A DNA stretch of 35,886 nt from a virus. Its lineage: Duplodnaviria; Heunggongvirae; Uroviricota; Caudoviricetes. A program made the translations under genes and the position numbers. Location of the stretch: the IMG/VR virus record IMGVR_UViG_3300031998_000037. One strand, 5' to 3'. The notes under the pieces were generated by a model. It was not told the DNA's origin, did not search any database, and worked only from the letters and a program-made list of their open reading frames with translations. Of the stretch, positions 8,576-14,942 are shown one piece after another. Within the stretch, counting starts at the first letter, position 1, and every line of letters begins with the position of its first letter.

Positions 8576-8612
8576 TCGCATTGCAGGGTTCAAATCCTTG
8601 CCCGTGCGACCA
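8576..8612 (+). ncRNA. tRNA minihelix-like fragment (acceptor stem + T-arm + ACCA)
   Basis: TCGCA/TGCGA stem, GCAGGG-TTCAAAT-CCTTGC arm, 3' ACCA. Confidence 0.5.
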
Positions 8613-13626: not shown

Positions 13627-13700
13627 TGGGATATAGCCAAGTGGTAAGGCACAGGATTTTGACTCCTGCATCGTGAGTTCAAATCTCGCTATCCCAACCA
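13627..13700 (+). tRNA. tRNA-Gln(TTG)
   Basis: Canonical cloverleaf, TGGGATA/TATCCCA acceptor, anticodon loop TT-TTG-AC, encoded CCA. Confidence 0.95.
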
Positions 13701-13705
13701 ATCAA

Positions 13706-13853
13706 CTGAACTTAGCTTAATTACAAAGCACTATTATCAATTTCAATCTTCCTCAGTAATCCCCTTTACTTCTGAGAATTTTGCTACAAAGGCATTTGTT
13801 TGAATGCTATTTGATATATAGAGATATAGGTGCAAGTCCTGTAGTTCAGACCA
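13706..13853 (+). ncRNA. tRNA-like RNA with about 70-nt structured insertion replacing the anticodon loop
   Basis: CTGAACT/AGTTCAG + ACCA, D-arm GCTT/AAGC, T-arm ATAGG-TGCAAGT-CCTGT. Confidence 0.7.
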
Positions 13854-13854
13854 T

Positions 13855-13913
13855 TCGCATTGGTAGTGCTTTCCTTTCAGCACTGGGATTAAATTCCCAC
13901 GCCAATGCGATCA
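13855..13913 (+). ncRNA. Minimal three-way tRNA-like element
   Basis: 9-bp TCGCATTGG/CCAATGCGA stem enclosing two hairpins, ends ATCA. Confidence 0.5.
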
Positions 13914-14096
13914 TTAATACTCCGTTTCTACTATAGATTTTTGACCTGAGTAAGTCATAAACTGCTCATTCTTTTTAAAAAGTTCCTGTTCGTTGCCATA
14001 GTGACGAACCTCCTAATGCCCATCGTGGATGGGCAAATATGCCGATGAACCGTTCATGTCGGAAACTCGACACCATATCAGAAAGGAATGAATTAA

Positions 14097-14942
14097 ATGC
14101 CTTCAAAAAAAGAATTGATAGTAACTACAAATGATGGTGATATGCGAATTGTTGTAATGGATATCACTCCGCGAAAAGCAAGCGAATTGCTGGATAAAAA
14201 CACAAGCAATCGTAACCTGAGACAAGGCAGAGTTAGTATGTACGCATCTGAGATGAAAAATGGGAACTGGAAATCTAATGGTGTTCCAATAATCATTGGT
14301 GATGATGGCATTCTAAAAGATGGGCAGCATAGATTATGTGCTTGCGTAAAAGCAAATGCCACTATGAAAAATGCTGTAGTAATCTACTTGCCCAAAGCTC
14401 AAACAAATTGTTACGATATCGGAGCAACAAGAACTGCTGTAGATGTTGCAAAGTTTATGGGAATTGACGACCATCCATATTTAAGATCAAACGCTATATT
14501 TGCTTCTGTTAATCTTGCAATCACTGGAAGATCAGACGGTTATCGTTCTTACTCTAAAATCGGTCTTGTTAAAGAGATACAGAAACATCCAGAAGCTTGC
14601 GAATTTATATATTATAAGATACTATCAAATGGCGCAGCACAAAATCTAAAATTCCGCAAATCTGGATTTATGGCTGCAATATTCAATGCTTTTCTCGTAG
14701 GTTATGATAGAGAAAAGCTGGAGAGATTTTGTACTGTTCTTATTCATGGCATAGTAAGAGATGAAGCCGAAATTCCAATCATCAAGCTTAGGGATCAGAT
14801 TTTGAATATAAGTGCGCAGTCAAGAAGGGATAAGCTTGTTCTGTATTTCCAGACGCAAGCTGTACTTAAAGCCTACGAAATGAACAAAACAACTGTTGAT
14901 TTAAAAAAGGCAGATAAAGAATATTATTCCTATCCGAAATAA
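14097..14942 (+). CDS. ParB-like / DGQHR-motif protein
   Basis: ITP..A..LL..N..NR.L...V..YA..M..G.W....PII....G.LKDGQHRL. Confidence 0.75.
   Translation: MPSKKELIVTTNDGDMRIVVMDITPRKASELLDKNTSNRNLRQGRVSMYASEMKNGNWKSNGVPIIIGDDGILKDGQHRLCACVKANATMKNAVVIYLPKAQTNCYDIGATRTAVDVAKFMGIDDHPYLRSNAIFASVNLAITGRSDGYRSYSKIGLVKEIQKHPEACEFIYYKILSNGAAQNLKFRKSGFMAAIFNAFLVGYDREKLERFCTVLIHGIVRDEAEIPIIKLRDQILNISAQSRRDKLVLYFQTQAVLKAYEMNKTTVDLKKADKEYYSYPK

Follow-up and report, generated by a model that had tools for sequence, protein, structure and literature searches.

The locus examined here raises the question of what a tRNA-shaped element is when it has every arm of a tRNA except the anticodon loop, and why such an element should persist. 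It lies at positions 13706-13853 on the plus strand of the window, by which we mean the whole 35,886-nt stretch of DNA that was analyzed, itself part of a 58-kb IMG/VR viral contig of a rumen phage that is about half complete. The original prediction described a tRNA whose anticodon loop is replaced by a two-hairpin domain, and offered two explanations: an unusual tRNA intron or a non-decoding tRNA mimic. Comparison with related phages indicates that the element is a tRNA-derived module that no longer decodes and has nonetheless been kept.

Results

A cloverleaf frame with an insert in place of the anticodon loop

The acceptor 5' strand, CTGAACT (13706-13712), pairs at all seven positions with the 3' strand AGTTCAG (13843-13849), which was read directly from the sequence. 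It is followed by U8A9 (13713-13714), a 4-bp D stem (GCTT/AAGC, 13715-13718 and 13726-13729) closing the 7-nt loop AATTACA, A26 (13730), and the first strand of a 5-bp anticodon stem (CTATT/TATAG, 13731-13735 and 13817-13821). This 5' half of the frame (13706-13735) was recognized in the sequence, in the predicted fold, and by the scanner described below. The 3' half (13817-13853), recognized in the sequence, runs from the second strand of the anticodon stem through the 4-nt variable loop AGAT (13822-13825), a T arm with a 5-bp stem and a 7-nt loop (ATAGG/CCTGT and TGCAAGT, 13826-13842), and the acceptor 3' strand to A73 and an encoded CCA (13850-13853). The minimum free energy fold of the element is a cloverleaf, so that the acceptor, D, and T arms, the variable loop, the discriminator, and the 3' CCA all occupy canonical tRNA positions, as had been proposed; the start 5 nt after the preceding tRNA-Gln, which ends at 13700, was likewise borne out.

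Missing from the element is the 5-bp stem with a 7-nt loop bearing U33, an anticodon, and purine 37 that a decoding tRNA has. In its place is an insert of 81 nt (13736-13816), whose first 5 nt (13736-13740) and last 6 nt (13811-13816) lengthen the anticodon stem to 10 bp with one bulged T at 13817 (13731-13740 paired with 13811-13821), in agreement with the predicted length of about 10 bp. The elbow nucleotides G18G19 and T54-Psi55-C56 are also not all in place: the D loop has no G, and in the T loop, UGCAAGU, T54 and A58 are present and position 55 is G.

Standard tools did not recognize the element. ARAGORN gave no credible call in its default mode, in its intron modes, or at lowered thresholds, and in Rfam searches of the region, at the gathering threshold and at E values up to 10, tRNA-Gln alone was matched; both were checks proposed with the original prediction. 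A custom cloverleaf scanner that tolerated any insert of 8-150 nt between the anticodon-stem strands returned one match in the real window, the 13706-13853 element. In 200 shuffled windows it returned 0.3 matches each, with CCA in 0 of 59. When about 1 Mb of other loci was scanned on both strands, every match with both U8A9 and ACCA fell within the homologous tRNA array, and the remaining matches, about 10, had neither.

Several known RNA classes were considered and rejected. A tRNA carrying a group I intron (RF00028) is similarly interrupted in the anticodon loop, but the insert has no P3-P8 core, the ligated exons make no anticodon loop, and insert length is inconsistent among relatives. An archaeal-type tRNA intron, with its bulge-helix-bulge motif, does not fit a stem that is continuous with one 1-nt bulge, and the contig has neither PF01974 nor RtcB. 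The ARAGORN tmRNA search found none, and pair 3-70 is G-C rather than the tRNA-Ala-like G3:U70. The C4 antisense RNA of P1/P7 (RF01695) had no Rfam match at E values up to 10 between 13550 and 14100.

The element is one module of an array upstream of a ParB-like gene

The element is located in a lysogeny-type block, whose genes run in the order tyrosine recombinase, HTH-MazF-like gene, 122-aa gene, 349-aa gene, tRNA-Gln, element, Y element, leader, ParB-like gene, and a second tyrosine recombinase. The first array module is a tRNA-Gln(UUG) with an encoded CCA (13627-13700, plus strand), identified by ARAGORN and by Rfam with a tRNA score of 69.2 bits and found in nearly all relatives. The contig also encodes a tRNA-Glu(UUC).

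The Y element (13855-13912, plus strand) begins 1 nt past the CCA of the tRNA-like element and consists of a 9-bp closing stem and two hairpins, with a fold z score of -6.5 and, in the alignment of relatives, compensatory changes in the stem. One of its hairpin loops, UUUCCUUUC, is complementary to the Shine-Dalgarno sequence GAAAGGAA (14081-14088) of the ParB-like gene. The Y element could be a C4-like RNA that masks the ribosome binding site. The leader (13988-14036, plus strand), upstream of the same gene, is an invariant block of the alignment made up of a hairpin with the loop TGCCATAGTG, the anti-Shine-Dalgarno-like motif CCTCCT, and a second hairpin, GCCC...GGGC. It is kept in all relatives, being seen for example in L008, L016, L020, and L180, has no Rfam match, and probably controls translation of the ParB-like gene. 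That gene (14097-14942, plus strand) encodes a 281-aa protein of PHROG 5931 with 69 homologues, among which the DGQHR motif is conserved. A simple scan found no promoter or terminator between the array modules.

Elsewhere in the window, at 8576-8612, is an acceptor/T-arm minihelix of 37 nt that has the T loop TTCAAAT and a terminal CCA; it could also be an attP core. The slot after the ParB-like gene is variable among relatives. Several have an RNA ligase (PF09414) and a Thg1-like gene (PF04446) two genes downstream (L209:3402-5211, L210:3402-5211, L016:5759-5846, L003:5165-5846), while L002, L004, L006, L007, L012-15, and L207 have TnpB there and the window has its tyrosine recombinase.

Relatives share the architecture and differ in the filling

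The ParB-like gene served as the syntenic anchor in the search for relatives, and its 69 homologues led to about 40 syntenic loci on contigs from rumen and gut metagenomes and in prophages of Ruminococcus/Eubacteriales metagenome-assembled genomes. By contrast, blastn of the region against GenBank phages matched tRNA-Gln only, and exact-pattern scans of IMG/VR for the T arm and the leader motif, together with a single-protein locus search, returned nothing. In all relative loci the array is a series of abutting modules on one strand, in the order tRNA-Gln, often a stem-closed element, often a tRNA that we call tRNA-X, often tRNA-Lys(UUU), then Y and the leader.

Split frames recur in these arrays with inserts of 12 to 333 nt that have no common core. 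The frame type of the window is found with a 73-nt insert in L208, whose ParB-like protein is 89% identical, and with a 333-nt insert in L002, L006, and L007. Frames of other lineages are quite different in sequence and identical in architecture, with inserts of 209 nt (L016-19), 207 and 250 nt (L209/210), 133 nt (L008), 78 nt (L100 and L180), and 38 nt (L020 and L101). A further split tRNA-like element at L008:326-430 has a 34-nt insert, CAA instead of CCA after A73, and the T loop TGCAAAT, the same unusual loop as in L002. The junction with Y is the most telling comparative feature: across 17 distinct arrays, Y comes directly after an ACCA end, and that end belongs either to a split frame or to an ordinary tRNA-Lys. 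In L182 the slot before Y is occupied by an acceptor/T minihelix, to which the minihelix at 8576-8612 of the window is similar.

Modules with terminal stems of 10-13 bp also abut the preceding CCA. One of these, L214:1734-2024, has an ACCA end and an antisense fragment of the family described in the next section, and has no D arm; similar stem-closed elements lie directly 3' of tRNA-Gln in L003, L016, L020, L100, L180, and L207.

Candidate origins of the insert and of the frame

The 333-nt insert of L002 contains an 89-aa open reading frame on the opposite strand which, in an all-against-library HMMER comparison, matches residues ~124-198 of a family of ~300-aa proteins (P0071). Sequence searches of Pfam, PHROGs, and the PDB returned nothing for these proteins; the ESM Atlas, using features and predicted structure, grouped them with the Rep_trans/Phage_CRI rolling-circle replication initiators, and it was the one resource to give this lead. 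The full-length family member in L206 lies in an ordinary operon and is not embedded in a tRNA. Further pieces of the family occur in L016b (residues ~169-207), in L209b (residues ~78-112), and in the stem-closed, ACCA-ended module of L214 (residues ~134-174), antisense in every case. As the long inserts hold antisense fragments of this Rep family, the filling is leftover foreign DNA, neither an intron core nor a designed domain, and the long inserts are what is left of a Rep gene that was inserted and is decaying.

The 81-nt insert of the window resembles the 333-nt insert at its ends only. The similarity of the L208 insert to that of L002 is significant (4 of 500 shuffles) and is confined to the 5'-proximal 15 nt, and for the window and L002 inserts the internal similarity lacks significance, its score being reached by 47 of 500 shuffles. 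The inserts of the window and L208 are thus likely to retain only the ends of a former Rep-bearing insert, and that of the window is likely a deletion derivative of a longer one; the alternative is a later insertion into a short ancestral cargo. No Rep homologue of the P0071 family was found in the 58-kb contig, nor any complement to the cargo beyond chance 12-mers. The two hairpins that had been predicted are present in the window sequence, hairpin 1 at 13752-13776 and hairpin 2 at 13792-13807, but they do not make up a conserved domain: the fold of the insert is no more stable than that of its shuffles (z -0.6), and hairpin 2 is absent from L208, the closest relative. Hairpin 1 differs between the window and L208 by two double changes. 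Several inserts have short direct repeats on either side, namely CTATT (window), CCCTTT (L016b), and ATTATTTT (L020). We do not claim a target-site duplication, as the canonical arrangement of a 5-bp stem and a 7-nt loop is not obtained when the insert is taken out together with one repeat.

The nearest intact-looking kin of the frame appears to be tRNA-X of sister phages. The acceptor of the window element, CTGAACT/AGTTCAG-A-CCA, is one compensated pair away from that of L180 tRNA-X, CTGAACG/CGTTCAG-A-CCA, and the differences in the D and anticodon stems are also compensated pairs. The determinants of bacterial tRNA-Pro are C1-G72, A73, G35, G36, and G37 (PMC9976931), all of which tRNA-X has, whereas the window element lacks those of the anticodon. 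By this comparison the ancestor of the element was a phage tRNA whose acceptor end was of the proline type (C1-G72, A73). The frames of the L016b type have instead an acceptor and anticodon stem like those of the neighboring tRNA-Lys, and their insert starts after CUUUU. Because the two frame types resemble tRNA-X and tRNA-Lys, respectively, two different tRNA genes would have been hit in the anticodon loop.

tRNA-X is kept in seven distinct phage lineages (L003:1894-1976, L016:1864-1946, L180:1742-1822, L207:2078-2157, L209:1823-1902, L214:1650-1733, and L215:1833-1916). Its D and T loops are canonical, and it carries the proline identity marks, with xGG-G immediately ahead of the 3' stem strand, but its anticodon loop is 12-15 nt long, being extended by 5-8 nt at the 5' side. 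ARAGORN labels it inconsistently as Phe, Ser, Ile, Gln, or ???, and the L003 copy has an Rfam tRNA score of 52 bits. The accompanying tRNA-Lys(UUU) has the canonical loop CUUUUAA in L003, L207, and L213 and the loop CCUUUAA, with C32 and C33, in L180 (1906-1981) and L100 (1920-1995); the latter may be a variant that evades anticodon nucleases.

Conservation of the frame relative to the insert

Between the window and L208, tRNA-Gln is 97% identical and the frame of the element is equally conserved, at 65 of 67 positions (97%), with both changes structure-neutral (36/36 in the 5' piece and 29/31 over 13823-13853). Identity is 88% in the leader, 87% in the Y element, and 86.5% in the ParB-like gene, and it falls to 64%, with 22 gap columns, in the insert. 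Deletions never enter the frame.

Pairing is maintained across the family, which was a further check proposed for the cloverleaf: of the 399 stem cells in 19 frames, 388 hold standard pairs, with two to five pair types at each acceptor position. Since frames of different origin share a tRNA fold trivially, a test inside one descent group was added, using L016b, L017b, L180b, L100b, and L209b, whose insert ends are common by descent. In this group six of seven variable stem pairs are still paired, two of them through double changes (binomial P ~0.007 against a neutral rate set generously at one third). Variation in the frame type of the window is limited to two stem pairs, one of which is preserved while the other is broken in L208 and L002, so the case for selection in that lineage is one of rate contrast and not of covariation. 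Taken as comparative sequence evidence, these results argue that the cloverleaf body is under selection while its filling drifts. Of the two explanations first offered, the non-decoding tRNA mimic is therefore the one that agrees with the data, the anticodon loop being gone and unrestorable and the frame, but not the filling, conserved.

Discussion

A possible role as tRNA-type processing punctuation

We favor, with confidence that is about evenly balanced, the reading that the former tRNA body is kept as punctuation for RNase P and tRNA processing in a co-transcribed array. The anticodon loop of a proline-type phage tRNA would have been destroyed by an insertion of foreign DNA, of which the 81-nt remnant is left in the window, and selection would since have held the cloverleaf body while the filling drifted. 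The tRNA-Gln, the tRNA-like element, the Y RNA, the leader, and the ParB-like gene would be transcribed together. RNase P would then cut at 13705/13706, on the 5' side of the element, an event that would also free the 3' trailer of tRNA-Gln, and the boundary between the ACCA end and Y would set the 5' end of an RNA containing Y and the leader. Processing would also yield a stable tRNA-shaped by-product of 148 nt.

The element presents an acceptor/T-arm coaxial helix with a 3' NCCA at an RNA boundary, a position kept in the 17 arrays. The slot before Y can be filled by a split frame, a tRNA-Lys, or a minihelix; what these have in common is the minimal substrate for tRNA end processing, which favors punctuation. 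More generally, the comparative data point to a role that needs the acceptor/T-arm end alone. Known substrates of RNase P include polycistronic tRNA transcripts (PMC2190699), the tRNA-like t-elements and mascRNA (PMC4919922), and, on the account given in PMC4919922, phage regulatory RNAs such as C4. Against punctuation, the elbow is changed at nucleotides that RNase P and tRNA enzymes contact (G18G19 absent, G55). Another endonuclease could instead separate the structured Y stem from the encoded CCA. Punctuation also leaves the retained D arm and the long anticodon helix unexplained, as a minihelix suffices in L182.

Other explanations of the element

The intron reading holds that the element is a functional tRNA and that its intron, of a novel type, is removed to yield a decoding tRNA. 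The insert does occupy the anticodon loop, the site of bacterial group I tRNA introns, relatives encode an RNA ligase, and a MazF-like RNase is nearby. Even so, inspection of the junctions of the window, L002, L016b, L180b, and L020 revealed no excision that would leave a U33/R37 loop on a 5-bp stem, which agrees with the original observation that no simple excision restores one. Moreover, the inserts vary over the 12-333-nt range around no conserved core, the long ones are gene fragments, Rfam found neither a group I intron nor a small ribozyme in the window, L002, or L003, and the D and T loops lack the tertiary nucleotides of a decoding tRNA (G18G19 and Psi55 equivalents). A splicing endonuclease, RtcB, RNA ligase, and Thg1 were all sought in the half-complete contig and not found. 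On these grounds we consider an intron very improbable.

Destruction of the anticodon could also have left a neutral relic, a tRNA pseudogene killed by the insertion and still intact because too little time has elapsed. The lost anticodon, the degenerate tertiary-interaction nucleotides (a D loop with no G, and G55), the shrinkage of the insert through deletions in different lineages, and the stem pair mismatched in L208 and L002 would all be expected of a relic. It is nevertheless an unlikely one, given that the frame is 97% identical beside an insert at 64% and flanking functional regions at 86-88%, that no deletion enters the frame and several deeply diverged frames keep all their stems, and that substitutions in the L016b group preserve structure.

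Two further explanations give the processed RNA an activity of its own. An anticodon-independent decoy or carrier would be bound or modified by a factor that reads the acceptor/T-arm end, such as the CCA-adding enzyme, a synthetase, a phage RNA-repair enzyme, or a host toxin directed at tRNA 3' ends, with the effect that real tRNAs are protected or regulated. The frame with its encoded ACCA is conserved like a true tRNA, and the array has tRNA-Gln(UUG), relatives have tRNA-Lys(UUU), in some with C32-C33, and the contig has tRNA-Glu(UUC). Anticodon nucleases typically target these isoacceptors. In relatives, RNA ligase and Thg1-like enzymes are encoded two genes downstream, but the contig of the window has no ligase, Thg1, or RtcB, and the fact that a normal tRNA-Lys can fill the same slot is better suited to a generic role than to a specialized decoy; we judge this reading somewhat unlikely. 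Decoys for anticodon nucleases, T-boxes, or RelA, which had also been suggested, are hard to reconcile with the element because all three read the anticodon loop that is missing here, and with the proline-type determinants G35, G36, and G37 (PMC9976931) gone, charging by ProRS is unlikely. Alternatively, the frame might be a scaffold and the cargo its active part, such as an antisense RNA or a small regulatory RNA that the tRNA body stabilizes and matures. The cargo is exchangeable inside a constant frame and is antisense to the Rep gene in L002, L016b, and L209b, hairpin 1 has its two double changes between the window and L208, and, as presented in PMC4919922, the C4 RNA of P1/P7 is a precedent for a phage antisense RNA matured by RNase P. 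The Rep-antisense part, however, is lost from the window cargo, the contig offers neither a Rep homologue nor a complementary target beyond chance 12-mers, and the cargo is not stably folded and is the fastest-evolving of all segments, which makes a scaffold quite unlikely. We attach just as little probability to a broader version, in which phages of this group use tRNA bodies as scaffolds that express and stabilize exchangeable cargo RNAs and the Rep fragments are captured antisense weapons; these would be aimed at a rival rolling-circle replicon, whether satellite, plasmid, or ssDNA phage, and the window copy would be a spent or retargeted one.

Comparison with known systems

With canonical tRNAs (RF00005) the element shares the 7-bp acceptor, U8, D loop ends of the A14/A21 type, the 4-bp D stem, the 5-bp T stem, the 7-nt T loop with T54/A58, A73, the encoded CCA, and a position in a tRNA array, and with bacterial tRNA-Pro it shares C1-G72 and A73 (PMC9976931). 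It differs in having no anticodon loop, no G18G19, and no Rfam or ARAGORN call, and in having G55; it cannot decode.

The literature searched held no description of this family of tRNA look-alikes. The nearest described counterparts are the T4 species 1 and 2 RNAs, C4 RNA, and tRNA-like processing signals. Species 1 and 2 (rnaC/rnaD) are stable non-tRNA RNAs of the T4 tRNA cluster with no known function, and they have tRNA-like paired ends and tRNA-type processing. Compared with them, the element keeps a full cloverleaf, and its filling is variable leftover DNA.

C4 RNA of P1/P7 is an RNase P substrate (Hartmann et al. 1995, as cited in PMC4919922) and, like the RNA proposed here, is a small phage RNA cut from a longer transcript via tRNA-like features and lying upstream of a candidate controlled gene. 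C4, however, has no D or T arm and the element has no Rfam match to C4, and an antisense function of the C4 type suits the neighboring Y element better. Plant mitochondrial t-elements and the MALAT1 mascRNA are non-decoding tRNA shapes that direct cleavage by RNase P and RNase Z (PMC4919922), and there too a small tRNA-like by-product is released from a longer transcript. They are eukaryotic or organellar, whereas the element is from a phage and evidently arose by insertion into a real tRNA gene. Finally, integrating elements create partial or non-canonical tRNA genes (PMC9897764), again tRNA genes altered by mobile DNA and misjudged by standard tRNA finders. Those cases involve duplicated pieces of a tRNA at the borders of an element; in the present one the two halves remain in register around a small remnant and show signs of purifying selection.

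To these systems the present case would add a proline-type frame, a filling that can consist of leftover gene fragments, and a slot that a real tRNA or a minihelix can fill instead. The presence of Rep-gene fragments cautions against reading each structured tRNA-like insert as a designed domain. As tRNA finders and Rfam miss these elements, such arrays are probably under-annotated in gut and rumen viromes. The comparative series offers a testable model of tRNA-type punctuation in phage regulatory transcripts. The element itself suggests that a phage tRNA gene whose anticodon was lost to an insertion can yet stay under purifying selection of the strength seen on a tRNA, and hence that the tRNA body would have a selectable job apart from decoding.
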